Positions 9,163 to 53,138 of a stretch of 64,000 nt of DNA are shown here, piece by piece. The stretch is from a virus: the IMG/VR virus record IMGVR_UViG_3300045988_081423; one strand, written 5' to 3'. The number at the start of each line of letters is the position of its first letter. Position 1 is the stretch's first letter. Under the pieces are notes generated by a model. That model was not told the DNA's origin, searched no databases, and saw nothing but the letters and a program-made list of their open reading frames with translations. The translations under genes and the position numbers were made by a program.

Positions 9163-9164
9163 GC

Positions 9165-10841: not shown

Positions 10842-11789
10842 AAATATTAACTGTCCACAACTAAATTGTGAATTGTAGCGAACTAGCAAATGCTAGGTGT
10901 GTGATTGACGTTTAGGAATCGTAGGAAATGACGATTAGCAATCATACTAACAGGGAAACGCTAAGTCTTATGATATGCCAATCCTGTGCATTAAAGCGAA
11001 TTATAAATTTAAGAGAAAGGAGGTTTACTATGAAATATATAAATATTGATACAGAAGGTTTTTATGATATGAAAGACTTTGATGGAGAAGAGTGGAAAGA
11101 TTTAGCTGGATTTGAAGAATATTATAAAATTTCAAATTATAGCAGAATCAAAAGAAAGCCTAGGTCTTGGAGGTCTGGACGTAAGGGTGGCGCTTATAAA
11201 ACTCTTGGTTGGGGCATGGTTAAGCAACGTAGACTAAAAGGTGGATATGTAAAAGCCACTTTATGTAAGGATGGGGATAAAAGAAGCTATTCCGTCCATG
11301 TTCTTGAAGCGAAGACGTTCGTGCCAAATCCAAATAATTTACCTGTTGTAAACCATAAAGATTTAAACAAAGATAATAATTCCGCAGAAAATCTTGAATG
11401 GACGACATACTCTGAAAATACAAAACACTGGATTGAAAATACAGGTTACGACTTTAAGGGACATAAATTTGCAAAGAAATTAACGCAAGAACAAGAAATA
11501 CAAATTAAAGAATTTAAACAGAAAAACATGAGTATGACAACAAGACAGATTGCAAATGCGCTTGGTTTTACTTATAATCAGGTAAGAAGAGTTTTAAAAA
11601 TTTATAATTTGCTTTGATGTTAAACGACTATCCTTTAAGCTCGTCTGCTAAAATAAAGAGCAATAGGAGTAGGGCTGAGTGAAATTCTCAGTGGGTGAGA
11701 ACCCCTTAAATCGAAGTGCTACACATAGAAGATATAGTCTAATCCCCTTGGCATAGCCAGCAAATATCGGGAAACCGAGGGTATAAATG
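10842..11789 (+). mobile_element. group I intron (IA2-like core) carrying an HNH homing endonuclease
   Basis: It splits one codon-level motif, follows an exon U and ends in G. Conserved core blocks are AACGACTATCC (11623), CAATAGGAGTAGGGC (11661) and AAGATATAGTCT (11729), shared with the introns at 16951 and 51756. Confidence 0.75.
11030..11617 (+). CDS. intron-encoded HNH homing endonuclease
   Basis: Own RBS (AAAGGAGG). YKISNYSRIKRK and VNHKDLNKDNNSAENLEWTTYSENTKH form the HNH_3/NUMOD pattern, with a C-terminal HTH. Confidence 0.85.
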   Translation: MKYINIDTEGFYDMKDFDGEEWKDLAGFEEYYKISNYSRIKRKPRSWRSGRKGGAYKTLGWGMVKQRRLKGGYVKATLCKDGDKRSYSVHVLEAKTFVPNPNNLPVVNHKDLNKDNNSAENLEWTTYSENTKHWIENTGYDFKGHKFAKKLTQEQEIQIKEFKQKNMSMTTRQIANALGFTYNQVRRVLKIYNLL

Positions 11790-12935
11790 GGTGATATCAG
11801 CCTTACTTCTGATAATGAATATTTGGTAAACGCAATCAATCCAGATTTACCAATTATCACCTATGAAAAACAGAAAGTGAAGGCTCAAAAAATCAATTTT
11901 GATAATTTAGGTTCTTTTGATGTAAAGAGTTTCGACAGTCCTATTGGAGGTATTACGAATCTTGCAAGCAATCTTTATGCAATGAAAGATTTGTTTCCAA
12001 AAGATTCTAAAGAGCATCTTGAAATCGAAAAACGTATTCGTCTATTACGTCGGTGTCAGGGAGATGCTATCGACCACGCTAAAGGGGCTGTTTTTAAAAG
12101 CTACCCCAAGTATTGGTCACACCGGCAGAAGTATATCCCTATCACTGATGATATGACCGACGAACAGAAACAAGAAATTCAAAAACAAAATGAAGAAATT
12201 AAGTTCAATAATAGCATCTGCTGTGATAAGAAAACCTACTTTTTTGGTTATGTCTATCCAAAAGAAATGGCAAGACTCAAGCATTATAAGAAAAAACAAG
12301 GAGACCTCTGCCGTAAGAATTTTGGTTGTAAACTAAAAGACCTAAAGCAAAAACAAGATAAAACAGTAGAAGAAAAGCAATTCCTGCGTAATTATTACAA
12401 GTATATACCTCTGTTTAACTCTAACTGCACGATGAATAATCTGGCTAGATATGTAGAAGATTATGAATTTAAAGAGAATAAATCTAGTAAGTATTTTGAC
12501 TATTCTTACCTAATGTCTAACAAAGACAGAGAATTTAAGAAGAATATCTGCAAGCAGATTCAAGATGTCATTCATAAGTTCCAGCATAATTATCCTATTC
12601 TTCTAAAGAAGATTGGTCATGACCGTGATTGGGGTATTGAGGATGCTAATACCCTCGGTTCTGATAGAGAATCTTTCTTTGACGGTTTCTTTGATTATTA
12701 CAAGAACGAACTTATGAATATTCTATCCAATGAAGAAGAACTTGTTGATTATATCATTTATGTTTATTATGAACAATGTAAGTCTGCCGACAAATCTCTT
12801 CTTTGGGAACTGTATTCAGATGTCGTTCTAAATAATGTCAAAAATAATTCAGACCATTATTATAAGATTGTTGAGTCCGCAGATGGTCAAGAGTTCTTTG
12901 GCAAGAAGTTTGTTTTGCAGGAGGTAGCTAAATGA
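11790..12935 (+). CDS. single-subunit two-barrel RNA polymerase, exon 2
   Basis: In frame with exon 1 after splicing, starting GDISLTSDNEY. There is no RBS before the ATG at 11787, which lies in the intron 3' end. Confidence 0.75.
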   Translation, partial: GDISLTSDNEYLVNAINPDLPIITYEKQKVKAQKINFDNLGSFDVKSFDSPIGGITNLASNLYAMKDLFPKDSKEHLEIEKRIRLLRRCQGDAIDHAKGAVFKSYPKYWSHRQKYIPITDDMTDEQKQEIQKQNEEIKFNNSICCDKKTYFFGYVYPKEMARLKHYKKKQGDLCRKNFGCKLKDLKQKQDKTVEEKQFLRNYYKYIPLFNSNCTMNNLARYVEDYEFKENKSSKYFDYSYLMSNKDREFKKNICKQIQDVIHKFQHNYPILLKKIGHDRDWGIEDANTLGSDRESFFDGFFDYYKNELMNILSNEEELVDYIIYVYYEQCKSADKSLLWELYSDVVLNNVKNNSDHYYKIVESADGQEFFGKKFVLQEVAK

Positions 12936-13687
12936 TTTTTAATGAATACGAAAGAGCTGCCGAGATAGATGAGAAGCAAAAATTCTCAGCGGATATTATG
13001 ACAGATGGTATTCTTCTCGCTAGGTTCTATAAAACAAATGGTCTTAACAGAGAAGAGACGCAAGAAAAGATTAAAACGATTCTCTTTAAATTAGATGGTT
13101 GCTTTACCGATAAGTTCAAGGAAAAATCTTTAAGGGATATTATGTCTGGGTTTGATTCTTTTGAACTTATGGATAATGAGCCAGTATATTTTTATAAAGA
13201 AGAAATGGATATTATTAAACAGCTAAAGAATAAGACCGCAAGAAAAGTTTTGTTCGCTATGTTGTATATCCGTAAGGCTTCTGGTGAGAACGAGTTTGAA
13301 GCAGAAGCAAAAGACATCAATAGACTTTGCGTAAAGAGAATTTATCCGAACAGTCTTTATTTAGCATATCATGAGTTAAAAGAACTTGGATATGTTAAGT
13401 ATACGAACTTTAAAGGAGAGAATAAAACAGAGATTGTTTATCCCGCTCTAAATATTCAGTATACTTCTGAACCTGTTATTGTGATTCGTGATAAGCATAA
13501 TATAATGAATTATTATTGGAACTATGTCGGAGAAGGCAAATTTGCTATTTGCAAGAACTGCGGTAAATTAGTTCCGGTCACTTCATTTCATGTTGATTAT
13601 TGTGAAAAGTGTGCAAAAGAGAAGTACCTAGAGAAAAATATAAAATACAATAGGAAACGCAACAATTCCAAAACAACGACCGAGTAA
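12932..13687 (+). CDS. hypothetical protein with C-terminal zinc ribbon
   Basis: 251-aa ORF with CKNCG ... CEKC. Confidence 0.6.
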   Translation: MIFNEYERAAEIDEKQKFSADIMTDGILLARFYKTNGLNREETQEKIKTILFKLDGCFTDKFKEKSLRDIMSGFDSFELMDNEPVYFYKEEMDIIKQLKNKTARKVLFAMLYIRKASGENEFEAEAKDINRLCVKRIYPNSLYLAYHELKELGYVKYTNFKGENKTEIVYPALNIQYTSEPVIVIRDKHNIMNYYWNYVGEGKFAICKNCGKLVPVTSFHVDYCEKCAKEKYLEKNIKYNRKRNNSKTTTE

Positions 13688-13776
13688 TTTTCAAAAAACC
13701 TAGGTGTGAAGCCACTTTTCAGACTTCTTGCACATTTTCTCTAAATGAATAGGGAAATGTAGAAAATCTCTATTTT

Positions 13777-13809
13777 ACAGACCAGTATTTTGCTGGTCTG
13801 TTTTTTTTA
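13777..13809 (+). terminator. Rho-independent terminator
   Basis: Stem ACAGACCAG/CTGGTCTGT with a 7-nt loop, followed by a run of 8 T. Confidence 0.85.
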
Positions 13810-13812
13810 TTT

Positions 13813-13858
13813 ATGAGCAAGCGGAATTAAACAACCGCCCAAGTGAATTAAAAGGAAA
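13813..13858 (+). promoter_or_regulatory. conserved stem-loop motif, copy 1
   Basis: TGAGCAA-GCGG-loop-CCGC-CCAAGTGAATTAAAAGGAAAA. It matches copy 2 at 14680 with compensatory stem changes. Confidence 0.5.
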
Positions 13859-13861
13859 ATA

Positions 13862-14038
13862 ATGATTCAAGTATCACGAGCCGATATTGACGCACTACGC
13901 AAGGTTGGTCTTCTAAAAGAAGGTCGTGACCGTAATTATACGGTTATCAACCGTAAAAAGAAAAGTCGTCGTAAGAAGTATTGTGTCGTAGAGGAACCTA
14001 AGATTCTGGCATTTCTGAATCGCAAAAAGGAATACTAA
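13862..14038 (+). CDS. small basic hypothetical protein (58 aa)
   Basis: MIQVSRADIDALRKVGLL...KKKSRRKKY, with an AAGGAAA RBS. It falls below the 60-aa cut-off of the ORF track. Confidence 0.45.
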   Translation: MIQVSRADIDALRKVGLLKEGRDRNYTVINRKKKSRRKKYCVVEEPKILAFLNRKKEY

Positions 14039-14058
14039 TACGATTGGGGAATTGTAGA

Positions 14059-14682
14059 ATGAATTATAAAACTCCAATTCGTAATGATGGAGAAATGGTA
14101 GAGCAACAGATTCTACTGTCTGGCAATAACTCCATCAAGAAAAATCTAGCAATTTATCAACGTAAGATTTTGATTAATCAAGAAATTACGAATGAATCTG
14201 TCACAGAAGCTATATATTATCTATATACGCTTATGGACTTGGATAGAGAAGAGGGAGTAGAGAAGAGTCCAAAACCTATTGATATTCTTCTAAATACTCC
14301 GGGTGGTTCTGTATGGGACGGTCTCATTCTGGTTTCTCTGATTGAACAGATGAAAGACATGGGATACATTATCAATACAACTGCTATTGGTACTGCCGCT
14401 AGTATGGGTTTTATTATCTTTATTACTGGTTCCAATCGTTGCTCTTATCGTCATGCACAATTTATGTTACATGATATTTCTACAATGATGGGTGGCAAAG
14501 TAAAAGACCTAGAAGAATCTATGGAAGACCTAAAGAAGTGTCAAAAGCAAGTGTTTGACATTATTAAGAAATATACTCATATTCCAGATGAGCAACTAGA
14601 TGATTGGGTTAAGCACAAACGGGACGTTTTCTTTTACCCAGATGAAGCTGTTAAATGTGGTATTGCAGATAAGGTGCTTTGA
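14059..14682 (+). CDS. clpP: ClpP-family serine protease
   Basis: LNTPGGSVWDG, GTAASMGFII (Ser) and MLHD (His), plus a C-terminal Asp region, match ClpP/S14 motifs. It lies outside the head module. Confidence 0.8.
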   Translation: MNYKTPIRNDGEMVEQQILLSGNNSIKKNLAIYQRKILINQEITNESVTEAIYYLYTLMDLDREEGVEKSPKPIDILLNTPGGSVWDGLILVSLIEQMKDMGYIINTTAIGTAASMGFIIFITGSNRCSYRHAQFMLHDISTMMGGKVKDLEESMEDLKKCQKQVFDIIKKYTHIPDEQLDDWVKHKRDVFFYPDEAVKCGIADKVL

Positions 14683-15191
14683 GCAAGCGAGGACAAACTC
14701 TCGCCCAAGGGATTGAAAGGGATAAGTATTTGAATAATACTAAGAATACTCAAGATATTGAAAAAATTGAAACCATTGCTGTGGAAGATATGTCTAAGGA
14801 ACAACTAGTTCAGCTATTCTATAAGCTGGCTGACGAGGGCCGTTTTGATGATGAAGACATTGATGGTTGCTATTGTTGCGATGATGACGATGATGACATT
14901 GGTGATGTTGTAGACCCTGTTATCGGATTTAGCCTAGAGAACGTTATTGACTCTGAATTTGATGAAGAAGAATTTAACAAAGGTATTAAGTCGATGAGCT
15001 TTGTGGCTGGTCAACTGATGGCGCTACAAAACGCTGGTATCAAACCTCAGAATGCTCTTGAGTATCTACACGCTACTCATTCTCAGGACAGTGATTGCGA
15101 ATGTGCAAAGCGCGTCGCAGAACTACAAGCTGCTGTTAATGAAAAGGCTGAGAAGAAGAATTTAATTGAAAGTAAGAAAAATATAGCTTAA
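14679..15191 (+). CDS. acidic hypothetical protein (start uncertain)
   Basis: 170-aa ORF with a CCDDDDDD acidic run. The first ~45 nt coincide with conserved motif copy 2, so the real start may be the internal ATG (MSKEQL). Confidence 0.5.
   Translation: MSKRGQTLAQGIERDKYLNNTKNTQDIEKIETIAVEDMSKEQLVQLFYKLADEGRFDDEDIDGCYCCDDDDDDIGDVVDPVIGFSLENVIDSEFDEEEFNKGIKSMSFVAGQLMALQNAGIKPQNALEYLHATHSQDSDCECAKRVAELQAAVNEKAEKKNLIESKKNIA
14680..14725 (+). promoter_or_regulatory. conserved stem-loop motif, copy 2
   Basis: TGAGCAA-GCGAG-loop-CTCGC-CCAAGGGATTGAAAGGGATAA, starting at the clpP stop codon. Confidence 0.5.
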
Positions 15192-15256
15192 ATGCTATAT
15201 TAAATTTATATTATATAAGTGGCTATATGCCGCATGGATTAAAAGGAGTAAATATT

Positions 15257-15526
15257 ATGACTAGTTCTAGTATCGTAAAGATGATTGCTGACAACACTGA
15301 TTACACTCAGAAGGACATTAAGGCTTTTCTAGCTGCTGCCGAGCCTGTTCTACTAGAAGCACTAAAGGCTGGTGAGTCCTTTAAGATTATGGATGTCACT
15401 GTTTCTCTGGCTGATGTTGCAGAACGTACCGCTCGTAATCTACAGACTGGCGAAATGATGACTGTCCCTGCTCACAAGAAGGCTTCCTTTAAGCCCTCTA
15501 AGGCTCTCAAGGAAGCCGTAAAGTGA
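15257..15526 (+). CDS. HU/IHF-family DNA-binding protein
   Basis: 89 aa from the ATG with an AAAAGGAG RBS. The HU pattern includes the beta-arm ARNLQTGEMMTVPAHKKASFKPSKALKEAV. Confidence 0.85.
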   Translation: MTSSSIVKMIADNTDYTQKDIKAFLAAAEPVLLEALKAGESFKIMDVTVSLADVAERTARNLQTGEMMTVPAHKKASFKPSKALKEAVK

Positions 15527-15773
15527 TTTAACCAAAGATTGATATACTGGTGTTTCTCTACCATTAAGTGAGAGGCTGTAACATCAGGTGAGCCACTACC
15601 AATAAGTGTGGAATTAAAAAAGCGGTAATTCTGCCGTGTAAACTATTTCTTGAATTATTAGCGGGTGCAACGCTTAGAATATTGCACACTCGTTTGTATT
15701 CTACCGGATACTGCTGGACATGGTTTGCTAAAATGAATATCGCTGGCATACCGATTAAAGTATGCTTATATGT

Positions 15774-15850
15774 CGCAGAATAGCCCAATCAGGTACGGCG
15801 CTTGGTTCATACCCAAGAGATTCTTCGTTCAAATCGAAGTTCTGCACCCA
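15774..15850 (+). tRNA. tRNA with anticodon CAT (Met, initiator-like or Ile2), CCA encoded
   Basis: 77-nt cloverleaf. Acceptor GCAGAA/TTCTGC with a C1-A72 mismatch, U8, D-arm with GG loop. Anticodon stem CTTGG/CCAAG with loop TTCATAC, 5-nt variable loop, T-arm CTTCG-TTCAAAT-CGAAG, then C-CCA. Confidence 0.75.
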
Positions 15851-15909
15851 ATAACAGAGAAATAGGATTCTCTGTTAAATTTAAATAAAGAAAAAGAGGA
15901 TTTTCTATT

Positions 15910-16203
15910 ATGCGTTTTTATTCTGATGTATGTCACAAGCTATTTGAATCACAAGAAGAACTAGAAAAGGCTGAAAAAGCTCTGGCTCAAAAGAACAATG
16001 AAGAAGCTAAGAAAAAAGCTGAACGTAAGGCTGATGCCGATAAGGTTCAAAAAGCTCACGACGAAGTGTTTAAAAAGTATGACGAGTATTGCAAGCTAGT
16101 TGATGAGTTTGTAAAGAAGTACGGTTCTTATCATACTACGATTGACAAGCCAATTCATCTTAATGATGTACTACGGTCTTTTGCGGATGTATTTTGGTTT
16201 TAA
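15910..16203 (+). CDS. Lys/Glu-rich coiled-coil hypothetical protein
   Basis: 97-aa ORF with an AAAGAGGA RBS. Confidence 0.6.
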   Translation: MRFYSDVCHKLFESQEELEKAEKALAQKNNEEAKKKAERKADADKVQKAHDEVFKKYDEYCKLVDEFVKKYGSYHTTIDKPIHLNDVLRSFADVFWF

Positions 16204-16232
16204 TTATTAAAATTATAGAAGGAGGCTAAAGA

Positions 16233-16697
16233 ATGTCTGAAAAAGTCGAGATTTTTCACTTTGATGATATTGCTAATAGTTATCACGGTGAATCTCTATA
16301 TTGTGGGCTAAGTTCTTCACTAAGCCTCCAAGTTGATAAAGATTGCACAATTACTGTATATGGGCAAATCAATCCTCGTTCTGGCGAATATTTTCAATTG
16401 CAAGTTTTAAATGAAGAGACAATGAAAACTTCTCCAAATATTACTTCTGCTGGAAATTATTTTGTCCATATAGCTGGATGCTATCATGTTAAATTTCAAG
16501 TAGAAAACGCTACTGATGTAAAAGTCGCTGGTGTATTCGGGAAATATCATTATCCGTCTGCGGAAGTAGACTTGGACGACTATGCTTCTATCGAATATGT
16601 AGACAGCAAGTTGGGTTCTGCAACGGAAGAAGAATTTAGAGAAATGCTTGAAGAAGTTCTAAATGCCCTATCTACAAGTGCTGTATTTAAAGATTGA
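16233..16697 (+). CDS. hypothetical protein
   Basis: 154-aa ORF with a GAAGGAGG RBS. Confidence 0.65.
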   Translation: MSEKVEIFHFDDIANSYHGESLYCGLSSSLSLQVDKDCTITVYGQINPRSGEYFQLQVLNEETMKTSPNITSAGNYFVHIAGCYHVKFQVENATDVKVAGVFGKYHYPSAEVDLDDYASIEYVDSKLGSATEEEFREMLEEVLNALSTSAVFKD

Positions 16698-16896
16698 AAT
16701 TTAGTTATTAATGATTTTTCTTATGATGATAGCACAAAGAATTTTAATATTGAATAATTTAAAACAATACATTTAAACAAATGGCGGTTTTCCGAAAGGT
16801 TGTAATTAACGCCTATATTGCGTTCCCGCATTTTATATAAATTATAACATAATCTACATCTTCTAAGATATATCTTGGTTAATTGAAGGTGTTTTT

Positions 16897-16950
16897 ATGG
16901 AAATTGATGGTAAAAAGGTTGCTTCTACTGGGACTACTGCGCTTGGTATT
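16897..16950 (+). CDS. Gly/Cys-rich protein, mini exon 1 (17-18 codons)
   Basis: MEIDGKKVASTGTTALGI continues naturally into exon 2 (TVLGGTALAGVLGG). A splice after T16947 or T16950 keeps the frame in both cases. Confidence 0.55.
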
Positions 16951-17785
16951 GTGGGCTAACACCATATAACCCAAATAGCATTTTTCGTTTTGTCGAACGG
17001 ATGTAATTAGCTGAGTTTTTATTAAACTCGTAAGTAAAAAATACTAATTATGTTAACGGGGGAGTTTCTAAGACGCAATCCCGTGGGAAGGAAATTATAC
17101 GATGAAAGAATTTAGAAAAGTTCCTAGTTTAAAGTTTCTATACGAAATCAGTCAGGATGGTATTCTTCGTAATGTCAAGTCTAAAAAAGAGACTGCTTTT
17201 GAACCAGATAAGAATGGATATTACAGATGTACTATTCATAATAAAAGTATTGCTGATTCACCAAAACATTTTCTCAGGCATAGACTTGTTGCTGAATGTT
17301 GGTGTAATATTCCAGAAAGATTGGAAGATTACCCAATCAATAAACTACAAGTAAATCATATTGACGGAGATAAATCTAATAATAATTGCAAAAATCTTGA
17401 ATGGGTTCTCCCGTTTGAGAATGTTCGTCATGCTGTAAAAAATAATCTTTGGTATGAAAGTGAAAAATTTACAGAGCAGAAACATGAGAAGAAACCGATT
17501 ATGTGTATAGAAACTGGCGTTGTTTTTGAATCTTCTTACAAAGCAGCAGAATGGATTTGTGAAACTACTGGAAAATCTGCAAAGTATTTCAATATGTCAA
17601 ACCATATTCGTGAAGTTGCTAGAGGCAAGAAGTGGAAGAAAACAGCCTATGGATACCATTGGAAATTCGTATAAATTAAATCTGTACAGACTATCTCCTT
17701 AATAGGAGAGTAAGGGTTCTATTGACACGAATCTTGAAAAAGTGCTACCGCTTTTGCGGTAAGATATAGTCGATTAATTATAATG
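16951..17785 (+). mobile_element. group I intron carrying an HNH homing endonuclease
   Basis: Core blocks CAGACTATC (17687), AATAGGAGAGTAAGGG (17701) and AAGATATAGTC (17761) match the other introns. It ends in G before exon 2. Confidence 0.65.
17102..17674 (+). CDS. intron-encoded HNH homing endonuclease
   Basis: LYEISQDGILRNVKSKK and VNHIDGDKSNNNCKNLEWVLPFENVRH form the HNH_3/NUMOD pattern. Confidence 0.85.
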   Translation: MKEFRKVPSLKFLYEISQDGILRNVKSKKETAFEPDKNGYYRCTIHNKSIADSPKHFLRHRLVAECWCNIPERLEDYPINKLQVNHIDGDKSNNNCKNLEWVLPFENVRHAVKNNLWYESEKFTEQKHEKKPIMCIETGVVFESSYKAAEWICETTGKSAKYFNMSNHIREVARGKKWKKTAYGYHWKFV

Positions 17786-18388
17786 ACAGTCTTAGGTGGC
17801 ACCGCTCTTGCTGGCGTATTAGGCGGTAATGGTGGTGGCAGTGGCTCACCTAACGGTGGTGGACTACTAGGTGGTCTATTTGGCGGTGGCAATAACAATA
17901 CCTGTTATGTTACCGAAAAAGAGTTCTATCAGAACCAACTGGCTGATACCAATATTATGTATCAGAATCTAATGAATACAAATAGTGCTCTGTGTGAACT
18001 AAGCCAGCGTGTTGCAAGCGATGAAGTTTCTATCGCTAAGAACTTTGAAATTGCTGCACTAAATAGTGAATGGCAGCAGAAGATGAATGACAAGCAGTTT
18101 GCTTGTGTTGATGAAAAGATGCAGTGGATGGATAAGTTTATGAAGGCTTATGTTGATTCTACCACTTGCGACTTTATCAAGGCAAAGCATTATCTCTCTC
18201 CTTCTGACCTTGCTGACCCTTACACTAATACTTCTCAGGCAATTGTATCTGTTCCTACCTATCAGTTTACAACTACTGCTTGTGCAGCGAATTACTGCAA
18301 TCCTTATTTTGTAAGCGGCACTGCTTATGCAAATGGCCCTGCTTACACTAATACTGGTTGTGGTTGCAACGGTGGACTTACTTTCTGA
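17786..18388 (+). CDS. Gly/Cys-rich protein, exon 2
   Basis: Glycine-rich N-terminal run, several Cys, C-terminal GCGCNGG. There is no RBS before the ATG at 17783. Confidence 0.6.
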   Translation, partial: TVLGGTALAGVLGGNGGGSGSPNGGGLLGGLFGGGNNNTCYVTEKEFYQNQLADTNIMYQNLMNTNSALCELSQRVASDEVSIAKNFEIAALNSEWQQKMNDKQFACVDEKMQWMDKFMKAYVDSTTCDFIKAKHYLSPSDLADPYTNTSQAIVSVPTYQFTTTACAANYCNPYFVSGTAYANGPAYTNTGCGCNGGLTF

Positions 18389-22780: not shown

Positions 22781-22877
22781 TTAATTAAAGACCAGAGGAT
22801 AGAAACATTAAGCTGCTATCACCCATTGTTAGGAGATACAGGTTCTTTGGCTTGCCTGTCTGGTCTTTATTATTTAT

Positions 22878-23225
22878 AATTGTAGTCGTACAATTGTGGG
22901 ACGCTATAGGCTCTTTGTGTTCTATGATTGTAGGTATCTACAAACTATAAGAGTTTGTAGTTTCCATTAAATAGCCTACCAGACTTAGTTACCAGAAATG
23001 ATAACTACGATATTTAGGTTATGACACCCTCGGTTGACGCAACAGACCGTCGCTCTGTCGTATATATTTAAGTTAGGTTGGAGTAATAGTAGCCTTGTGA
23101 TATATACGCTAAAGCCTTTATATCATTGTCGAGTTGAGGTCGGAAAAGCTATGTGGTAATAGTATAGCAATACGCACAACCATTACATAAGTAATGGAGT
23201 TATTTTTACGAAAGGGGTGTCTAGT
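22878..23225 (+). ncRNA. candidate IscB omega-RNA (guide plus scaffold)
   Basis: About 350 nt without a credible ORF, directly 5' of iscB on the same strand and dense in hairpins (22938-22960, 22986-23007, 23098-23125, 23181-23196). Its position matches known IscB omega-RNAs. Confidence 0.6.
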
Positions 23226-24482
23226 ATGGTATATGTATTGAATATTGATGGACAACCGCTTATGCCAACTACTAGGCACGGTAAAGTCAAACATCTTCTA
23301 AAAGATGGTAAGGCTAAAGTAGTTAAGCGTTGTCCATTCACAATTAAACTTCTATACGAGACTCCTAATTGCACACAAGATTTAACTCTTGGGATTGATA
23401 CAGGAAGTGGCGCAATAGGAACTGCCGTTTCTACCGATGATGGCGAAATAGTTTATATGTCGGAAGTAGTTGTTAGAAATGACATTACTGACAAAATGAC
23501 TCAAAGGGCCAAATACCGCAGAAATAGACGTAGCAGAAAAACTCGTTATAGAAAAGCAAGATGGCTAAATCGCAAAAATTCAATTAAGAAGGATAGATTT
23601 AGTCCCACGATGGTAAGTAAACTCCATAGCCACGTTAAAGAAATAGAATATATCAAATCTATTCTCCCTATAACTACTATGGTCTTTGAAACAGGAACAT
23701 TTGATACTTACCTTATGAAAAATCCAAGCCTTGTAAATGAAAATGTAAGACATTGGGGATACCAAAAAGGAACAAATTATGGGTTTGAAAATACCAAGGC
23801 TATGGTTTTAAATCGAGATAATTATACTTGTCAGTATTGCAAAGGTAAACATAAAGATAGTAAACTGGAAGTTCATCATATTGTGTTTCGCAGCAAACAT
23901 GGTTCAGACGAAGAAAGTAATTTGATTACACTTTGTCATACTTGCCATAAGGCGTTGCATAGTGGTAAAATTAGTCTTAAATTAGAAGGTAAGGTCAAAG
24001 GGAATCTAAAATATGCTACACAGATGAATAGTATTCGTAAACAATTATTTAGAATCTACTCGGAAGCAATTGAAACTTTTGGTTATATAACAAAGGCAAA
24101 TCGTCTAAAACTTGGAGTAGATAAAGAGCATTTTTATGACGCTTGTGTTATTGCAACACATGGAAATAAATTTAGCGTAAGATGCAATTTATACAAAAAG
24201 AAATGTGTTTCAGATGGGGATTTTCAACAGACTAAGGGAGTTCGTTCTGAGCAGCGCATTCCAACGTGTAAAATTCAGGGGTTCAGAAAGTTTGATAAGG
24301 TGAGATATTTTGGTAAAGAATATTTTATAAAAGGAAGGCTTTCTACTGGGTATGCAATACTTATGGATATAGATGGTAATAAATCCGATTTTTCTTATAT
24401 GCCGAAAGGTTTTAAAACGCCTAAAATTATAAATCTAAAAAGATTAGAAGCTCGTTCATCGTGGATAGTAATTTTTAAATGA
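23226..24482 (+). CDS. iscB: IscB RNA-guided endonuclease (PLMP, split RuvC, HNH)
   Basis: DGQPLMPT; LGIDTGSG; RAKYRRNRRSRKTRYRKARWLNR; MVFETGTFD; CQYC..EVHHIVFRSKHGSDEESNLITLCHTCHKALH; HFYDACVIA; C-terminal FDKVRYFGKEYFIKGR..GY. RBS AAAGGGG. Confidence 0.88.
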   Translation: MVYVLNIDGQPLMPTTRHGKVKHLLKDGKAKVVKRCPFTIKLLYETPNCTQDLTLGIDTGSGAIGTAVSTDDGEIVYMSEVVVRNDITDKMTQRAKYRRNRRSRKTRYRKARWLNRKNSIKKDRFSPTMVSKLHSHVKEIEYIKSILPITTMVFETGTFDTYLMKNPSLVNENVRHWGYQKGTNYGFENTKAMVLNRDNYTCQYCKGKHKDSKLEVHHIVFRSKHGSDEESNLITLCHTCHKALHSGKISLKLEGKVKGNLKYATQMNSIRKQLFRIYSEAIETFGYITKANRLKLGVDKEHFYDACVIATHGNKFSVRCNLYKKKCVSDGDFQQTKGVRSEQRIPTCKIQGFRKFDKVRYFGKEYFIKGRLSTGYAILMDIDGNKSDFSYMPKGFKTPKIINLKRLEARSSWIVIFK

Positions 24483-24522
24483 CATAAAAATAATTGTACG
24501 ACTATTTTTGTGAGGTGGTCGT

Positions 24523-30615: not shown

Positions 30616-31671
30616 ATGGCTATTGCTAAAAAAGGAAAACAAATCGGAGAAGAGACGAAAAAGAAACTGATTTGCATTAGTTGTGGCTGTGGAGTTCAAA
30701 ATAATTTCAATGCCACAAAAGATGAATATCATAAGTTCTTTAATAAGATACCATATTGTAAGGATTGTGTCAAGTCTATTTATAAAGGATACTTGGTAAA
30801 ATACAACGGCAATACAAACCTCGCTATTTATTTTACTTGTAGGAAAATTGATATTCCGTACATTCATCAAGCGTATTTGGCGGCTATGAAAGAATCTCAG
30901 AATGAAAACTCTGTGTTAAATGGAGAAGAAAACCTATTGCCAATTTATCTAAAGAATCTTGCATTCGCAGATAAAAATGGTTGGGGTTCGAGCTTTGACG
31001 ATTCTCAAGGCGAAAATAATATCGAAGGTCTTAGTAACTATGATGTTTATACAAAGATTAAACGTCCCAAGAAAGTTACTGGCGAGCTTGACGATGACGA
31101 TAATTATGAAGATATTGAATTTAGTACAGCATATTTGCAAAGTGTATGGGGAAGGTTTGATAATGATGACCTAGCATATCTTCAAAATGAATATATGGAT
31201 TGGGAATCTAAACTGGGTCAAATTGATACTAAAGATATTGATGTTATTGTAAAGCAAATCTGTCATACGACTCTTCAAATTAATAAAGCTCGTGAAAATG
31301 GGCAAGATGTTACAAAAATGATAAACTCTCTAACATCACTTATGAATAATGGCGGCTTGCTTGAAAAGCAGAACAAGGCTGTTCAAAATTCTAAGGTTGT
31401 TGGTCAGCGCATTGAGGATATTGAGACCTTTAGACCTGTTAAGAAGGTTGACCCTGAATTAGCTGATGTTGATAGCAACCAAATGCTATTCGATGCGTTT
31501 GTTGGTTGTACAGCAAGAGCTTTGGGTAAGAATAATAAATATGTTGAAAGATTTGAAAAAGAGTTTGAACCTTATAGTATTGATATAATTGAAAACGGTA
31601 AGGCTCAACTTCTTGGAACGGAGGGTGATGAAGAATGTCAGAATCAGACAAAATCGTCATCCGAAGATTGA
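30616..31671 (+). CDS. hypothetical protein, possible small terminase subunit by position
   Basis: 351-aa ORF directly upstream of terL and overlapping it. N-terminal Cys4 (CISCGC...CKDC). No family recognised. Confidence 0.35.
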   Translation: MAIAKKGKQIGEETKKKLICISCGCGVQNNFNATKDEYHKFFNKIPYCKDCVKSIYKGYLVKYNGNTNLAIYFTCRKIDIPYIHQAYLAAMKESQNENSVLNGEENLLPIYLKNLAFADKNGWGSSFDDSQGENNIEGLSNYDVYTKIKRPKKVTGELDDDDNYEDIEFSTAYLQSVWGRFDNDDLAYLQNEYMDWESKLGQIDTKDIDVIVKQICHTTLQINKARENGQDVTKMINSLTSLMNNGGLLEKQNKAVQNSKVVGQRIEDIETFRPVKKVDPELADVDSNQMLFDAFVGCTARALGKNNKYVERFEKEFEPYSIDIIENGKAQLLGTEGDEECQNQTKSSSED

Positions 31672-32878
31672 AAAAGAAACGTGTTACGCTCCAAGAACAA
31701 TACAATGAAAACTTTGAAGCATGGGTGGGATATTGGAGGGCAAACCCTCAAAGATTTATAACTGAATACCTAGGCTTACCACTGTATGATTTCCAAAAGG
31801 TTTTAATTTGGGAAATGAATAATACTGCGAACTATATATTTATAGGTAGTCGCGGAATTGCGAAGTCTTCTCTTACGCTAGACTTTTGTTGTCAAATGGC
31901 AATTCTTTATCCCGGTCTCAAAATCCTTGTAGTTTGTCCTGTTAAATCCCAAAGTAAACAATTTGTCAAAAAGATTTATGAATATATGCGTATGAGCAAA
32001 AATCTTGAGCAAGAAATCAAGATTGATGAAATAAAAATTGGTGTTAATGAATGCCAAATCCCATTCAAAAATGGTTCTACAATTTTTACTGCAACTTACG
32101 GTGAAAATGCTTTGGGCATTCGCGCCCACATACTAATCGTTGACGAATTTGTTCGTACAGAAAAAGAAGTTATCACTCGTGTCTTTGACCCAATGCTTTC
32201 AGACTCAAGAAAACCAAGATATCTCGATTTAACTCCTGCGCAAAGAGCAGAAGAATATAAACATGAAGAGTTAAGAAAGGTTTATCTATCTTCTATCAGA
32301 CGAGCAGATGAATGGTCTTATAAAACTTTTGAAGACTATGTTGATTGGATGACGGATGGGAACAGAGATTACTGTGCGACTGTCATTAGTTATGTATTGG
32401 GCGTAAAGAATGGATTTATTAGTAAAAAGAAAGTAGAAGATACTTTTAAATCCAATCTTGAAAATATGAATATTTTACAGGCTGAATACAATGGTATCCC
32501 TGAACGTGGTACTGGTAACTCTTATTTTACATATAAAATGATGGATAGAGTCAGAACTAACTCTAAAGCATTCTGCTGTATGTCTGATGAAGAATATATT
32601 CAGTATAAAGATTGTAGAGAAAAGTATCCATACTATCAAGAAAAACTACCTAATGAAATTAGGTTACTATGTATGGACGTTGCTGTTATTGAATCTAGCA
32701 AGAACGACAATACTGCATTTTTTATTATTAGGTTAATTCCTGATAGTGGAAGATATACAATTATTGTGCCATACGCAGATAGTATGCACGGTCTAAACTC
32801 AATTGCTCAAACTAAGAGAATGAAACAATTATTTTATGAGTTTGAATGCGATTACATGATACTTGATACACAAGGCGT
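31635..32878 (+). CDS. terL: terminase large subunit, exon 1
   Basis: Walker A-like GSRGIAKSS, Walker B ILIVDEF, nuclease Asp CMDVAV. The reading frame breaks after ...YMILDTQGV. Confidence 0.8.
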
Positions 32879-33141
32879 GAAATGCTTGCGCCAATTATAT
32901 AGTAATATATAATTAAGTATTGCGGAAAAAACTGGAAGGCTGAAACGCTAATCAGAGTGGAAGTTATATAATAATATATATAACACACGCAACGCATAGA
33001 GATTGAAACTATTTATAGAATATAACATCTCCAAGAGTCCGCAACTCCTATTTAAATTTAGGATGAAAAGATATGCTGAACTAATACGAATGGTAAGTGT
33101 TAGAATTTAGAGATAAAAAGCTCTAAAGATAACAAATGAGG
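32879..33141 (+). mobile_element. ORF-less self-splicing (group I-like) intron in terL; boundaries within a few nt
   Basis: About 263 nt with stops in the terL frame. GAAACGCTAA and AAGATATGCTGAAC resemble the core blocks of the other introns. Hairpins CTAA/TTAG and TTTAGAG/CTCTAAA lie near the 3' end, which ends in G. Confidence 0.55.
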
Positions 33142-33670
33142 TATTTCTATTTTTGACTACGCTACCACGGAAACCTATGATGAAAACCGTGGCGTTACTT
33201 ACCCTGCATGGACGGTAGTTAACCCAGAAGATATTAAGATGGTTAACCGTACAATTGATAGAAATGCAGTCCCCGTAATTTATTCTGTTAAAACTCCAAT
33301 CCAGTTGAAGTCTGCTATGTTCAGTAATATGCGTGATTTGATTACTGATGGACGAGTTAATTTACTTGTTGATAGTCAAGAGGGTCTTGATTATATGATA
33401 AAAAACTATCAGTATTATAAGATTGAAGATGAGGATTTAAAGAAACGTCTTATGAATCCTTATGTACAAACTAATCGGCTTGTTGATGAGGCAATTAGTT
33501 TGGAACAGGTGGTTACTCAGGGCTATATTAACCTAAAGGAAAAAGCTGGGAATCGTAAAGACCGTGTTATGTCTTTGGCTTATGGTCTTTGGTATGCCAA
33601 GTTATTAGAAGACCAATACATTAATAAACAAGAAACCAACAGTTTATTAGACTGGACATTCTTTGGTTAA
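33142..33670 (+). CDS. terL: terminase large subunit, exon 2
   Basis: The in-frame sequence upstream of the annotated ATG (ISIFDYATTETYDENRGVTYPAWTVVNPEDIK) continues exon 1. No RBS precedes the ATG at 33239. Confidence 0.7.
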
Positions 33671-33688
33671 ACTATAATAGAAAGGTAG

Positions 33689-46023: not shown

Positions 46024-46049
46024 TTCCTTGTTAAATTTAAGGGACAAAA

Positions 46050-46484: not shown

Positions 46485-46499
46485 ATTGTAGAATACTCG

Positions 46500-48631: not shown

Positions 48632-48652
48632 GGATTAAAAGGAGTTGAAATT

Positions 48653-49321
48653 ATGACACTAAAGACTGTTATTGATAAACTAAACCAATACAAAAACAAG
48701 CTGATTAATAAAGAATCTCTTGACGGTTGGCTATTTGAGAATATCAATATTACTAATTATATTTCTATTGGTAATAAGTACGCTTATATCCACAAGATTA
48801 ATGAAATTTTCTCAGAAGAGATTGCTGAGATTCTAAGCAATAAACTAGATATTGAACTTGTATTTATGCGTTATGATATGCACGTCTTGTTTGATATTCT
48901 TCTTAAATATACCGATATTGAAGTAGCAAAGGAGGATAAGTCTCCTGAGTATTATGATATTATGGTAGAAGCTGAATTTGACCGTTATCTAAAACTATCC
49001 ATTGGTAATGATTGCATTAAATTTATGGATGCTTTTGAGAAGGCTTCTGGCATTAACGAAATTAATACTATGAATATTATTAAGGGTGCTATTGACAATA
49101 ATATTACTCAGGATAAGATTGACGCTCTTGATAAGGTATTTAAGAAGCTAAATACTAAGAAGAATAAAGACTTCATAGAAGATGTAATGGCATACTCAAA
49201 CCCTGCCGTTAAGGAACTAATGGACGGTATGCGTAAGTCCGCTATGGAAGATGCTAATAAGAAAATGAAGGAGAAATATTCTAAGCCGGACGGTGATTCA
49301 AATGGCAAAACAAACAGTTGA
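48653..49321 (+). CDS. tail assembly chaperone candidate (by position)
   Basis: 222-aa ORF, the first of two genes preceding tmp. Confidence 0.4.
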   Translation: MTLKTVIDKLNQYKNKLINKESLDGWLFENINITNYISIGNKYAYIHKINEIFSEEIAEILSNKLDIELVFMRYDMHVLFDILLKYTDIEVAKEDKSPEYYDIMVEAEFDRYLKLSIGNDCIKFMDAFEKASGINEINTMNIIKGAIDNNITQDKIDALDKVFKKLNTKKNKDFIEDVMAYSNPAVKELMDGMRKSAMEDANKKMKEKYSKPDGDSNGKTNS

Positions 49322-49922
49322 TAATAGGAAACTGCAAGATGCGATTGGCGTAAAAATAAAAAGAATCCAAAATGGTTTTTATGAATCCTACGAAAGAGAG
49401 GCTAGAAATATTTTAATGGCTATCGCTCAAGAAGGGGTCAAAAAAATTAAGGAATATATAAAAAAGTATTTTTACGATGATACTTCTGAATCTCCTTATT
49501 ATGAAAGATTAGCAGAACAAGGCGGTTTTTTAGCAACTATTAGTTATACTATTATTGACAAACATGGTATGCCAAATCAAATTAGAATTTACTGTGATTG
49601 GGACAAGCTCAAACGTGTCATTCGTCCGTATAGCCCCGGTCAAACTCCACAATTTGACGCTCACAACGGTTTCGATAATAAGAAATTTACAGAAGGATTG
49701 TACGACTACATAATGGATGGCACTTGGAACTCACCATACGGCAACCCTAGAACAAACGGAATTGGAGAGGGTGTCAACGATGAACTTTCTAATCTTCTTA
49801 CTGGTAGAGCAAGACAAGAAATTGCAGCTTATATGAAGAAATATTTCAAAGATACTACCATTAAACACCGTGTTGCTGGCGGTCTTTCTGTTAGCAGAGA
49901 TACAAAGAGACATAAGAAATAA
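49302..49922 (+). CDS. hypothetical tail-module protein
   Basis: ATG at 49302, directly upstream of tmp. Confidence 0.4.
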   Translation: MAKQTVDNRKLQDAIGVKIKRIQNGFYESYEREARNILMAIAQEGVKKIKEYIKKYFYDDTSESPYYERLAEQGGFLATISYTIIDKHGMPNQIRIYCDWDKLKRVIRPYSPGQTPQFDAHNGFDNKKFTEGLYDYIMDGTWNSPYGNPRTNGIGEGVNDELSNLLTGRARQEIAAYMKKYFKDTTIKHRVAGGLSVSRDTKRHKK

Positions 49923-49934
49923 GGAGGTGGGTAA

Positions 49935-51755
49935 ATGGCACAAGCACAAAGCGATTTATTTAGTTTTCTAATTACACCAGAATTTGATACAAAAGATGTT
50001 ACAGATAGCGCACAAATACTACAAAAAGAGCTTGAAAAAGTTGCAGAAAAAATATCAATACAAATAAGTAAAGCAATGGGAAAGGGTTTTTCGTTCCCAT
50101 CTGGTTTTCAACCAAAAGATATTAATGAAGTAACAAAATATATCGAAACCCTTGGGGGCAGCGTCAAACGTGTTGGAACTGTCATAACTTCTTCTTTCAA
50201 AGATGCAAGCGGAACAGTAACAACCCTAAAACAAAACATCAACGACGCTATAAATTCTGCTCAGTTGGCAAGCCTACAATCTATGAGTGGAAATCCTAAG
50301 AATATAGATATTATAAATAAACAGTATGCTCAACTAAGAAGTTCTAGTGCTACATACACTGGAACGGAACAGGTTAAGCAACAAAACGAATTAGAACAAC
50401 AGATTATTAAATCTTTGCAAGAGCGATATAGCTTAGAGGGTAAAATATCAGACGCAAAAGCAAGCGGAAACAAGATTACAGAAACTTATTATACGCAACT
50501 AAGAGATATTGCTGTTGCAGAAGAACAACAATTAGAATCACAATATAAAGGTTCTCAAACACGAATAAATTCCGTGAAACAGCAGTTGTCTCTTGAACAA
50601 CAATTGCGACAACAAAAGGCACAATCTACTGCGGAAGAAAATAAAGCTGTTGAGGCCATAAAACAATACGCAAAACAATATCAGACTGTCAAGCAATTAG
50701 AGAGCAAAGGTCAACAAAACACTCAGGCTTATACTGATGCTAAAAATGCTTTACAGCAGTTAACAAATACTTTAACAACGTATGGTGTTAAAGTTGTAAC
50801 AAGCTCCGACGGCACAACAAAACTTGTAGCACAACAAAATTCAATGGCTGACAGCTCCAATAAGGTTAAAACAGCGTTGGACAATGCCAATGGCAGTTTA
50901 GTAAAAACTGATACTGCACAAAATTCCCTATCGCAATCTATTCAGTCTAGTGTAGAGAACTTTATTAAATATCAGGTGGCTATGGAAGCCATCAACAAAA
51001 TCACTAGCGAATTCACATCTGCAATTTATGATATGAACGAAGCCATGACACAGGTTCGTATGGTTACAATGGGTAGCTATGAAGATACTGTGGCATTGGC
51101 TGATAGTTATACTAAATTGGCAAAGCAACTTGGTACTACTACGACCACAGTTGCAGAAGGTGCAGATGCTTGGTTAAGACAGGGTTATAATGCTCAAGAA
51201 GCAATGGAGATGCTAAAACAGTCAACTACGTTGGCTGTTGTTGGTCAATTGGACGCAAGCGAGGCGACTGACCAACTCACTGCAATCACAAAATCCTATA
51301 ATGTAGCTGTAGACGATACAAGCAAAATCGTAGATAAACTTGTGCAAGTAGACCTTTCCTACGCGGCCAGCACAGGTGAAATTTCTACAGCATTACAGAA
51401 AGTCGCTAGTTCTGCTGGACAGGCGGGGTTAGGACTTGATAAACTAATCGGTCTAATTACTATTTCTGAGGAAAAGACTCGACAAGCGCCAGAAGTTATT
51501 GGGTCTGCTTGGCAGAGTATCATCTCGCGTATATCAAAAATCACGGCAAAAGTAGATTTGGATGACCTCGTTGATGAGCAAGGTATAACCCACACAATCA
51601 ATGATGCAGATAAAGTTCTATCCAAATACGGAATTACACTAGTTGATACAAACGGTAAAATGCGCGAAATTGGTACTGTTCTTGATGAAATCGGTGCAAA
51701 ATGGAACAGCATGAGCACTCTTGAACAGAACCAGTTGGCTTATGTTGTCGCCGGT
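49935..51755 (+). CDS. tape measure protein, exon 1 (3' end within about 5 nt)
   Basis: Gln/Ala-rich coiled coil followed by the conserved TMP core (...LGTTTTTVAEGADAWLRQGY...EQNQLAYVVAG). Exon end GCCGGT can pair with GCTGGC at 51765-51770 (P1 with a U-G pair). Confidence 0.7.
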
Positions 51756-53138
51756 TCGATAAGTGCTGGCGTAAAACGTACTTAATTGACGGGAAACCCC
51801 TTTAGAGTCTTGACAACTAAGTTATTATAGTGATATAATAATGGTTGGAAGTAATCAATCCAAGTATAGTAAAATAGTCAAGAATTGGGCAACCCGCAAC
51901 CAAGCAACTATGAAAATAGTTGAAGGCTCAACGACTATCCAGTTAGCGTTAAATTAACGCAATAGGAGTAGGGCGCAATTCGCTACTGCGTGGGTGAAAA
52001 CCCCTTAAATCGAAATGGTACGGCATATCATAGATATGCAAGATATAGTCTATTCTCATGCAAAAGCATGAGCATTTTTATGTTATATTGAGGTTATAAA
52101 TGGGAAAAGTAATCAGATGGACAGACGAAGAAATTCAATTATTAAAAGAGCATTATCCTAATGATTCATGGGATAATATTTTATCTTTTATTCATAGAGA
52201 AAAAGGAAATATTATTACCAAAGCAAGTAAACTTGGAATCGTAAGGAATAGTCCAAATAAAAAGATTGAATGGTCTGACGAAGAGGTTGAAATTCTTAGA
52301 GGTGTTTATCTAACAACAAGGCTAGAAGACATTCCGAGACTGCATTTACCAAATAAATCCAAAGATGCCATTATTAGAAAAATGGGAGAACTAAGGTTGC
52401 TAAAATCAAAACCTTGGACACAAGGAGAAATAGAAAAATTTATCAAATTATATCCAAACACAGACAATAAAGAACTTTGTAAAATATTTGGAAGAACAAA
52501 GAATGCCATAATCAACGAATCTCAAAAACTTAATTTATATAAAAGCAATAGATTCACAGAGGAAGATATTGCTTTTATAAGAAACAACTATCTTAAAATG
52601 TCAGATTTTGAAATCGGAGAAATTCTCGGCCATCATTGGAGAGTCGTAAAGGATAAGCGTTTGTCTTACGGATGGAAACATTCTGAACCAATCTTAGGAC
52701 AAGGATATAAAAGTATTGTTGAATTTTGTCGTAAAAGCACACCCGGTTGGAGAAATGAGAGTATTGCATATTGTAATCATAAATGTGTAATCACAGGAGA
52801 AGAATTTGACGACGTTCATCATCTTTATTCTGCGAATCTCATTATAAAAGAAGTCGCAGACATTATTCCTCTTGAACCAAACGCTTCTCCCGAAATGTAT
52901 GACGAGGAATATCTTGGAGAGATTCTTGACTTATTTGATAAGAAACAGCGAGAGTATGGACACGGAGTTTGTTTGACAAAAGAAATTCATACGATGTTTC
53001 ATAAAGAATATGGATTCGGGAATAATACAAAAGGACAGTTTCTTGATTTCGTAGATAAACATAGTTTTAAATTATTAGTCGATATAACATAATATACAAA
53101 GATAGCAACTTTGTGAAATAAATAACAAAACAAGACAG
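51756..53138 (+). mobile_element. group I intron in tmp carrying an HNH-type endonuclease in its 3' part
   Basis: Core blocks AACGACTATCC (51930), CAATAGGAGTAGGGC (51960), GTGGGTGAAAACCCCTTAAATCGAA and AAGATATAGTCT (52040) are nearly identical to the rnap intron. Confidence 0.7.
52100..53092 (+). CDS. intron-encoded endonuclease: three W(T/S)DEE Myb/SANT-like repeats plus C-terminal HNH-like motif
   Basis: WTDEEIQLL, WSDEEVEIL and WTQGEIEKF repeats. C-terminal CVITGEEFDDVHHLYS ... CLTKEIHTMFHKEYG. Confidence 0.65.
   Translation: MGKVIRWTDEEIQLLKEHYPNDSWDNILSFIHREKGNIITKASKLGIVRNSPNKKIEWSDEEVEILRGVYLTTRLEDIPRLHLPNKSKDAIIRKMGELRLLKSKPWTQGEIEKFIKLYPNTDNKELCKIFGRTKNAIINESQKLNLYKSNRFTEEDIAFIRNNYLKMSDFEIGEILGHHWRVVKDKRLSYGWKHSEPILGQGYKSIVEFCRKSTPGWRNESIAYCNHKCVITGEEFDDVHHLYSANLIIKEVADIIPLEPNASPEMYDEEYLGEILDLFDKKQREYGHGVCLTKEIHTMFHKEYGFGNNTKGQFLDFVDKHSFKLLVDIT

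Follow-up and report, generated by a model that had tools for sequence, protein, structure and literature searches.

Four probable IA-type group I introns in the RNA polymerase, glycine-rich, terminase and tape measure genes of an uncultured human-gut phage

Group I introns of the IA2 type have been described in phage T4 (td, nrdB and sunY), in the Staphylococcus phages Twort and K (lysin, ORF142) and in Bacillus phages (SPO1, and the DNA polymerase and terL genes of the Bastille group). In the Bastillevirinae, terL is split two or three times, the associated endonucleases are phrog_59 proteins of the NUMOD4-HNH type, and matches to covariance models are missing on one flank of the loop that holds the open reading frame (ORF) (PMC11878797). 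The Jug jumbo phages of the gut carry on average 18.5 introns per genome (PMC12880540), and in intron-rich gut phages terL is again split two to three times, with metatranscriptomes confirming splicing for part of the introns (PMC12880540, PMC7886860). Here we analyze a stretch of 64,000 nucleotides (hereafter, the window) from the IMG/VR record IMGVR_UViG_3300045988_081423, which belongs to an uncultured human-gut phage with a genome of about 75 kb. Four of its genes are interrupted: rnap, encoding a YonO-like single-subunit RNA polymerase; a glycine-rich (Gly-rich) gene; the terminase gene terL; and the tape measure gene tmp. The four inserts are very probably phage group I introns of the IA type. 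As such they are additions to a well-known phage feature, a high intron density in phages, including those of the gut, having been published already.

The inserts share with IA2-type phage introns the P1-P9 core, the P7.1 and P7.2 helices between P7 and the 3' strand of P3 (P3'), the sequence AAGAUAUAGUC at J8/7-P7', the placement of ORFs in P6 or after P9, and the insertion at the most conserved codons of essential genes. They differ in their host genes (a YonO-like RNA polymerase, a Gly-rich gene and a tape measure gene), in the two hairpins between P3 and P4 of the rnap and Gly-rich introns, in the lack of P8 in rnap, and in that the Rfam group I model RF00028 misses three of the four. Like the Jug jumbo phages (PMC12880540) and crAss-like phages (PMC7886860), this is a human-gut phage with many group I introns and abundant HNH endonucleases; unlike them, it has a genome of only about 75 kb, fewer introns per genome, different intron families and, probably, a Firmicutes host.

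The window shares 92-95% identity with MT835481.1, a 74.7-kb sequence from human faeces that is listed without annotation as "Bacteriophage sp.", and about 25 further IMG/VR contigs of 60-83 kb each are close to it. Relatives of each interrupted gene were fetched from IMG/VR with junction-spanning peptides, and are designated below by L numbers. More distant relatives of the RNA polymerase were found with tblastn in SPbeta-group Bacillus phages (SPbeta yonO), Clostridium phage c-st, Enterocloster phage PMBT24 and Thomasclavelia phages; because YonO-like polymerases of this kind occur in Firmicutes phages, the host is likely a member of the Firmicutes.

A preliminary description of the window, made from its letters, had claimed that introns interrupt these four genes, and the comparison with relatives upholds that claim. 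In spliced translation, the ORFs flanking each insert join into one continuous protein, and uninterrupted alleles of all four genes occur among the IMG/VR relatives (L002-L004 and L011 for rnap, L018/L019 for the Gly-rich gene, L041 for terL, and L056-L058 for tmp). Excision at the boundaries of the inserts reproduces the intron-less exon sequence, the junction lengths being exact against L002, L018 and L041, and the last intron nucleotide is a G in every case (G11789, G17785, G33138 and G53138). Near-identical phages differ by the presence or absence of an intron and by its ORF-plus or ORF-less state, which is the pattern expected of mobile introns. It could be argued that nothing is spliced and that insertion of mobile DNA, such as free-standing endonuclease genes, has really divided or pseudogenised the genes, as Rfam is silent on three inserts and the case is made from DNA. 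This appears extremely unlikely, given that excision at U/G boundaries recovers every reading frame precisely, that four essential virion and transcription genes stay open in dozens of genomes, that the terL insert is entirely devoid of ORFs, and that the predicted helices covary, the pairing of exon and guide included.

For terL the predicted features, all on the plus strand, are as follows (for helices, the two strands are separated by a slash).

31635..32878 (+) terL exon 1, matching terminase PHROGs and, weakly, Terminase_6N/6C
32879..33138 (+) predicted group I intron of 260 nucleotides, no ORF, terminal G 33138
33139..33670 (+) terL exon 2, starting A GGT ATT..., protein ...DTQGVGISIFDY...
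32874-78/32888-92 (+) P1, exon GGCGU with guide GCGCC
32893-32914 (+) P2
32920-25/33039-44 (+) P3
32932-35/32952-55 (+) P4
32963-84 (+) P6a
32994-98/33072-76 (+) P7
32999-33031 (+) P7.1
33046-63 (+) P8
33081-33103 (+) P9
33106-27 (+) P9.1

The intron-less terL of L041 (97% identity) reads GGCGTAGGTATT, and the spliced window sequence, GGCGT^AGGTATT (^ marks the junction), is identical to it. This keeps the 5' end of the insert where it had been placed, at 32879, and moves its 3' end by 3 nucleotides, from 33141 to G33138. Twelve distinct ORF-less copies (eight from the window site, three from a second site at codon 161/162 and one divergent) were aligned to a structure model of 12 helices: P1, P2, P3, P4, P5, P6, P6a, P7 (as a pseudoknot), P7.1, P8, P9 and P9.1. 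In this alignment 98.3% of the cells are paired, against 28-49% when slid, and 40 of the 70 pairs are changed on both sides; none of 500 shuffles reached any of the observed measures. Exon and guide covary as well, GGCGU/GCGCC becoming GGGGU/GCCCC in five relatives. The terL insert thus displays a full group I core (P3-P7 pseudoknot, P4-P6 and P8) with covariation. The intron type of the window also occupies codon 161/162, there with a retargeted guide sequence, and its P8 loop holds an HNH ORF (Pfam HNH, DUF7487) in L001, L051 and L055. Across the clade, terL has at least four insertion sites (codons 76/77, 161/162, about 282, and 415/416), all of them occupied in L054 (1000-4100), where RF00028 registers two of the inserts (64.7 bits; 30.7 bits, E=5.7e-4). 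Other terL intron loci were noted in L001 (21527-21788), L036, L043, L046 and L049.

For the Gly-rich gene the predicted features are the following.

16897..16956 (+) Gly-rich gene exon 1, MEIDGKKVASTGTTALGIVG
16957..17785 (+) predicted group I intron of 829 nucleotides, terminal G 17785
17786..18388 (+) Gly-rich gene exon 2, TVLGGTALAG...
16952-56/16969-73 (+) P1, exon UGGGC with guide ACCCA, C.A at the splice site
16976-81/17742-47 (+) P3
16986-99 and 17013-29 (+) extra hairpins
17056-60/17080-84 (+) P4
17095-17102/17667-74 (+) P6
17689-94/17766-71 (+) P7
17695-98/17705-08 (+) P7.1
17715-19/17729-33 (+) P7.2
17748-51/17756-59 (+) P8

The intron-less allele in L018 reads ...TALGIIGTVLGG and the intron-less protein has ...GIIGTVLGG, while the window reads GGT ATT GTG GGC^TAA.... 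The 3' end first proposed for this insert, 17785, is retained, but the 5' end lies 6 nucleotides further on, at 16957 instead of 16951: a 5' splice site after 16950 was rejected because P1 covariation and the length of the intron-less protein place the site after GGC 16956. Among variants of this intron, the exon end varies in step with a guide that lies 13 nucleotides downstream in the intron: UGGGC pairs with ACCCA, UAGGU with GCCUA, UUGGU with GCCAA and UUGGC with ACCAA, position -4 of P1 covarying as G-C, A-U and U-A. At the splice site, five variants have a U.G pair and six, the window among them, have C.A, in step with the exon codon, GGT or GGC. In an alignment of 11 variants with the ORF deleted, 98.8% of the cells pair, compared with 29-41% when slid. 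Seven pairs have changed on both sides; they lie in P1, P3, one extra hairpin, P6, P7.1 and P8. The whole group I core is present, with P5 poorly defined.

The tmp intron is the one that Rfam recognizes.

49935..51755 (+) tmp exon 1, ending ...LAYVVAG; tape-measure PHROGs and Pfam PhageMin_Tail stop at the junction
51756..53138 (+) predicted group I intron of 1383 nucleotides, RF00028, terminal G 53138
53139..57470 (+) tmp exon 2, starting RNVFIAAMEDY...
51749-55/51765-71 (+) P1
51777-82/52017-22 (+) P3
51788-93/51893-97 (+) P4
51933-38/52045-50 (+) P7
51939-52010 (+) P7.1 and P7.2
52024-38 (+) P8
52057-70 (+) P9
52080-88/53082-90 (+) stem bracketing the ORF

RF00028 matches at 51731-52072 with 54.8 bits (gathering score 50; E=3.6e-11), and its alignment shows the core. 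The boundaries first proposed, 51756-53138, fit both the U.G pair of P1 (CGCCGGU/GCUGGCG, with U51755.G51765 at the splice site) and the terminal G, giving AG^RNVF. Two other junctions were rejected: G51754/G53134, which is in frame (AGQRNVF) and breaks the U.G rule, and a 5' site after GGCGTAAAAC, which restores the codons VKQ of intron-less alleles and leaves no P1, with C at both intron ends. The guide region GCTGGCGTAAAAC (51766-51778) is identical at 12 of 13 positions to the exon sequence GCAGGCGTAAAAC of the intron-less alleles, in which the codons absent from the spliced window gene, GTA AAA CAG, directly follow GGC. Introns similar to that of tmp occur in Staphylococcus (lysin genes), Bacillus, Vibrio N4-like and crAss-like phage records, with 68-73% identity over 150-240 nucleotides. 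Within the clade, codons 148-150 of tmp accommodate at least three different introns, and the stretch around tmp in L073 and L074 has three or four RF00028 matches.

In rnap the predicted intron, here called type A, falls within the catalytic metal-binding motif DFDGD.

9165..10841 (+) rnap exon 1, YonO-like single-subunit RNA polymerase, ending ...SDADFD in spliced translation
10842..11789 (+) predicted group I intron, type A, of 948 nucleotides; exon 1 ends at U10841, intron at G11789
11790..12935 (+) rnap exon 2, beginning GDISL...
10853-57 (+) guide GUCCA
10856-60/10866-70 (+) P2
10874-79/11718-23 (+) P3
10883-96 and 10902-44 (+) two extra hairpins
10950-54/10983-87 (+) P4
10988-11010/11598-11620 (+) P6 and P6a
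11626-31/11734-39 (+) P7
11632-11710 (+) P7.1 and P7.2
11748-60 (+) P9
11767-78 (+) P9.1

The proposed boundaries, 10842-11789, proved exact, the intron-less allele being GATTTTGAT^GGTGAT. The allele in L002 reads GATTTTGATGGTGAT, and those of L002-L004 and L011 (70% amino acid identity) have GCT GAT TTT GAT GGT GAT, that is, DADFDGD, the motif that the intron splits (DADFD^GD) and that excision rebuilds. Protein families record the split too: phrog_8308 covers the full-length spliced polymerase, phrog_25339 stops at the end of exon 1 and phrog_35857 is an exon-2-only family. A literature search returned no report of introns in YonO-type polymerases.

Variation in this intron is small; P3 covaries as C-G, U.G and U-A among the window, L014 and L010. 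Its core is further supported by the homology of its 3' half with introns that RF00028 recognizes and by a weak RF00028 match to P4-P6 in the near-identical MT835481 copy. A second intron, type B, sits 6 nucleotides upstream of the window site (DAD^FDGD) in L005-L009, L012, L013 and L017, and is either ORF-less (284-292 nucleotides) or has an ORF in P5 with a GIY-YIG-like motif that was noticed by eye and has no Pfam match. Its P3 is UGUGGU/GCCACA, and UGUUGU/GCAACA in L017. Comparison of the two types by direct reading showed that ORF positions and several helices differ, and that P4, one extra hairpin and P9.1 differ by compensating changes. The P7-P7.1-P7.2-P3' segment of type A aligns with its counterpart in tmp, and its 5' part and 3' tail resemble type B; this mosaic likeness, with type B ends and a tmp-type middle, suggests modular exchange.

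Taken across the four inserts, a P1 with a U.G pair at the splice site is present in tmp, terL and the Gly-rich intron (as U.G or C.A), and weakly so in rnap. Hairpins occupy the space between P7 and P3' in rnap (11632-11710), the Gly-rich intron (17695-17733), terL (32999-33031, one compound hairpin) and tmp (51939-52010), so that the extra P7.1/P7.2 helices of the IA2 (T4 td) type are predicted in all four; our assignment stops at IA, the features of that subgroup being reportedly those set out by Michel and Westhof in 1990.

A number of observations weigh against this identification and are considered together here. On the Rfam group I covariance model, by which the preliminary description would have judged the inserts, the outcome is divided: tmp exceeds the threshold, but rnap, the Gly-rich insert and terL fall below it. 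At the gathering threshold, Rfam gave a group I match over the whole window for tmp only; at E<=10 it gave none on 10500-18200 and 32000-34000; and when five short pieces of MT835481, divided at the ORF borders, were scanned in truncated mode, it gave only a weak match to rnap P4-P6 (15.6 bits, E=0.34). Nor does the model detect ORF-less relatives of the rnap intron, which are of type B (L012, L017), or terL-type copies (L036, L054). At its splice site, the Gly-rich intron of the window uses C.A rather than U.G. Two hairpins stand in a non-standard position in the Gly-rich intron and in both rnap types, A and B, namely after the 5' strand of P3, which covariation supports, and before J3/4-P4. 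In the rnap intron the P8 hairpin is absent, leaving only CAUAG between P3' and J8/7, and P1 is weak, consisting of GAU/GUC and one U-A pair across a U.C mismatch and overlapping P2. Relative to the intron-less alleles of L056-L058, the spliced tmp lacks three codons (VKQ). Finally, splicing itself is predicted from the DNA sequence. Set against the Rfam results, the same scan of the loci of relatives detected 14 other introns, and since the model also misses ORF-less relatives, its silence on three inserts is not evidence of absence; the case for rnap, the Gly-rich gene and terL rests on covariation and intron-less alleles, not on Rfam. The C.A wobble is isosteric with U.G. Hairpins between P3 and P4 have, to our knowledge, no standard helix name, and a literature search for helices named P3.1 or P3.2 in that position returned nothing useful.

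In rnap, P3, P4, P6 and P7 are present but the absence of P8 leaves the core incomplete. With P8 absent, P1 weak and extra hairpins at an odd place, self-splicing appears less certain for the rnap intron than for the other three. One might go further and regard it as a decayed group I intron needing a protein helper, since P8, present at the corresponding place in the homologous tmp and type B introns, is missing, and P1 is down to 3-4 pairs; or one might suppose that the polymerase is made as two polypeptides. The preliminary description had stated that the downstream gene parts lack a ribosome binding site, which does not apply to rnap: GAGGG (within 11772-11789) stands 5 nucleotides before ATG 11787, at the very end of the intron, and could serve as a ribosome binding site for exon 2 in unspliced RNA. 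The phage c-st homologue, moreover, is annotated as separate N- and C-terminal proteins. Both proposals nevertheless seem quite unlikely. A division into two polypeptides would fall inside the metal-binding DFDGD motif, and decay is at odds with an intact U-1, terminal G and guide (ACU^GUC matching both exon ends, GAU^GGU, as P1 and P10), with the P3 covariation, and with both exons remaining open in six near-identical copies while the exons diverge. The type B intron 6 nucleotides upstream in sister phages and an insert at the same site in c-st point instead to homing at a conserved target. With six genomes keeping both exons open and the motif rebuilt exactly, removal of the rnap intron in vivo is strongly implied.

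If the four inserts are indeed group I introns, each would be transcribed together with its host gene. The internal guide sequence would pair with the last bases of exon 1 to form P1, a guanosine bound in P7 would attack the 5' splice site, and exon 1, once freed, would attack after the terminal G, joining the exons exactly and restoring the frame and, in rnap, the catalytic DFDGD motif. Where an intron has an ORF, its enzyme would presumably cut intron-less alleles during co-infection, and repair of the cut allele would copy the intron in (homing). Splicing, autocatalysis and ORF-driven homing are all predicted in this scheme. Three of the introns contain such ORFs.

11030..11617 (+) rnap-intron ORF, 195 amino acids, HNH homing endonuclease, ribosome binding site AAAGGAGG upstream; P6a loop
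17102..17674 (+) Gly-rich-intron ORF, 190 amino acids, HNH homing endonuclease; P6 loop
52100..53092 (+) tmp-intron ORF, 330 amino acids, repeated N-terminal DNA-binding-like modules; downstream of P9

That endonuclease ORFs occupy different places in their introns, as had been proposed, is borne out by these positions, and the stems that bracket them measure 23 base pairs in rnap, 8 in the Gly-rich intron (with covariation) and 9 in tmp. The accompanying claim of an HNH-family ORF in each of the three holds clearly for two. The rnap-intron ORF matches Pfam NUMOD4 (8.4e-10) and HNH_3 (1.1e-6), both above the Pfam cut-offs, and phrog_59 (7.4e-40); the Gly-rich-intron ORF matches HNH_3 (4.4e-6, 26.7 bits, cut-off 24.8) and phrog_59 (2.2e-30); the two are 28% identical. 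For the tmp-intron ORF a search of Pfam and NCBIfam gave no match, and its hits are to phrog_1891 'HNH endonuclease' (1.4e-14) and phrog_323 (4.9e-25). Its C-terminal HH...H..H motif weakly matches (E=0.003) the HNH motif of the terL-intron ORF in L051, making it a probable HNH-type homing endonuclease.

The preliminary description had further noted that three inserts share near-identical core blocks and had read this, together with the endonuclease genes, as recent spread of one intron lineage within the genome, with the homing endonuclease genes being shuffled. The blocks themselves are there in part: AAGATATAGTC occurs exactly three times in the window, confined to the rnap, Gly-rich and tmp introns, but ACGACTATCC and AATAGGAGTAGGG are exact only in rnap and tmp and approximate in the Gly-rich intron (CAGACTATC, AATAGGAGAGTAAGGG). 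The block GTGGGTGA(G/A)AACCCCTTAAATCGAA is, as described, common to rnap and tmp. In the tmp alignment, however, AAGATATAGTC and (A)ACGACTA are the RF00028 consensus at J8/7-P7' and J6/7-P7, so that sharing them is uninformative on recent common origin. What does favour a single lineage is that rnap and tmp share long identical runs in the P7-P7.2-P3' region, and that all three introns have an IA-type layout and HNH-type ORFs. Yet the likeness of rnap and tmp amounts to about 100 nucleotides at 73% identity, their 5' halves having no detectable similarity, and the Gly-rich intron has only short, consensus-length motifs in common with either. The more specific P7.1/P7.2 module, AATAGGAGTAGGG...GGGTGARAACCCCTTAAATCGAA, is found exactly in 33 IMG/VR stretches, many of them on unrelated phage contigs of 110-265 kb, and lies inside an RF00028 match (53-98 bits) in 6 of the 17 stretches scanned. 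The endonuclease genes are 28% identical or unrelated. Each intron, moreover, occupies its own site in many relatives whose exons are 88-99% identical (1-12% diverged), from which it follows that the insertions predate the divergence of these genomes. Recent copying of one lineage into three genes, with exchange of its endonuclease genes, is therefore highly unlikely, and the evidence suggests that the introns derive from a pool circulating through the clade, and more widely, with modular exchange.

The c-st polymerase provides a further point of comparison. The YonO homologue of this phage (CST179/CST178, NC_007581), 27% identical to the window polymerase and annotated as two proteins, has an ORF-less insert of about 315 nucleotides (L080, 1881-2196) at the same D^GD site as rnap, which is not annotated as an intron. 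It begins AAAUGAUUUGUCC and has a CAACGACUAC...GGUAUAGUC core, making it group I-like by sequence motifs; Rfam found nothing on it. We consider it possible, if rather unlikely, that the rnap (types A and B), Gly-rich and c-st inserts form a distinct IA branch tied to the DxDGD motif of YonO-like polymerases, of which type A would splice without P8. Such a branch may be marked by two hairpins between P3 and J3/4, by invisibility to RF00028 and by occurrence in Firmicutes phages. Were the type A intron to splice, P8 would be dispensable in a natural group I ribozyme.

In practical terms, without intron recognition the four essential genes would be annotated as seven or eight fragments plus "hypothetical" pieces, and PHROGs already holds two exon-only families of the YonO-like RNA polymerase (phrog_25339 and phrog_35857). 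Surveys that rely on the standard Rfam model undercount phage introns, three of the four described here having escaped it. Our understanding of group I introns is unchanged by these findings; the clade nonetheless offers a compact natural series of intron-less, ORF-less and ORF-bearing alleles, including two intron types 6 nucleotides apart in one motif, at least four terL sites and several tmp sites, that would be useful for the study of homing and turnover.

Searches of the window for further elements gave no extra intron copies with nhmmer profiles of the terL and Gly-rich types, no convincing candidate in a scan of ORF-free gaps, and, in tblastn with all intron ORFs, no homing endonuclease besides the HNH domain of an IscB protein, to whose element the gap at 22781-23216 belongs. 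This element is carried by an insertion of about 1.6 kb (approximately 22885-24490) that MT835481 does not have. The IscB RNA-guided endonuclease (23217-24482, 421 amino acids) matches NCBIfam guided_IscB with 334.9 bits (cut-off 175) as well as Pfam RRXRR and HNH, and the ORF-free stretch of 330-430 nucleotides upstream of it, visibly higher in G+C, probably encodes an omega-RNA; the insertion would be an OMEGA/IS200-605-type element within a phage genome. Directly upstream of the rnap operon lie extremely AT-rich repeats (8431-9164), and MT835481 and several IMG/VR contigs start near window position 8758, where there are probably assembly ends or genome termini. A tRNA-Met (CAT) gene is located at 15774-15850, between the rnap and Gly-rich gene regions.

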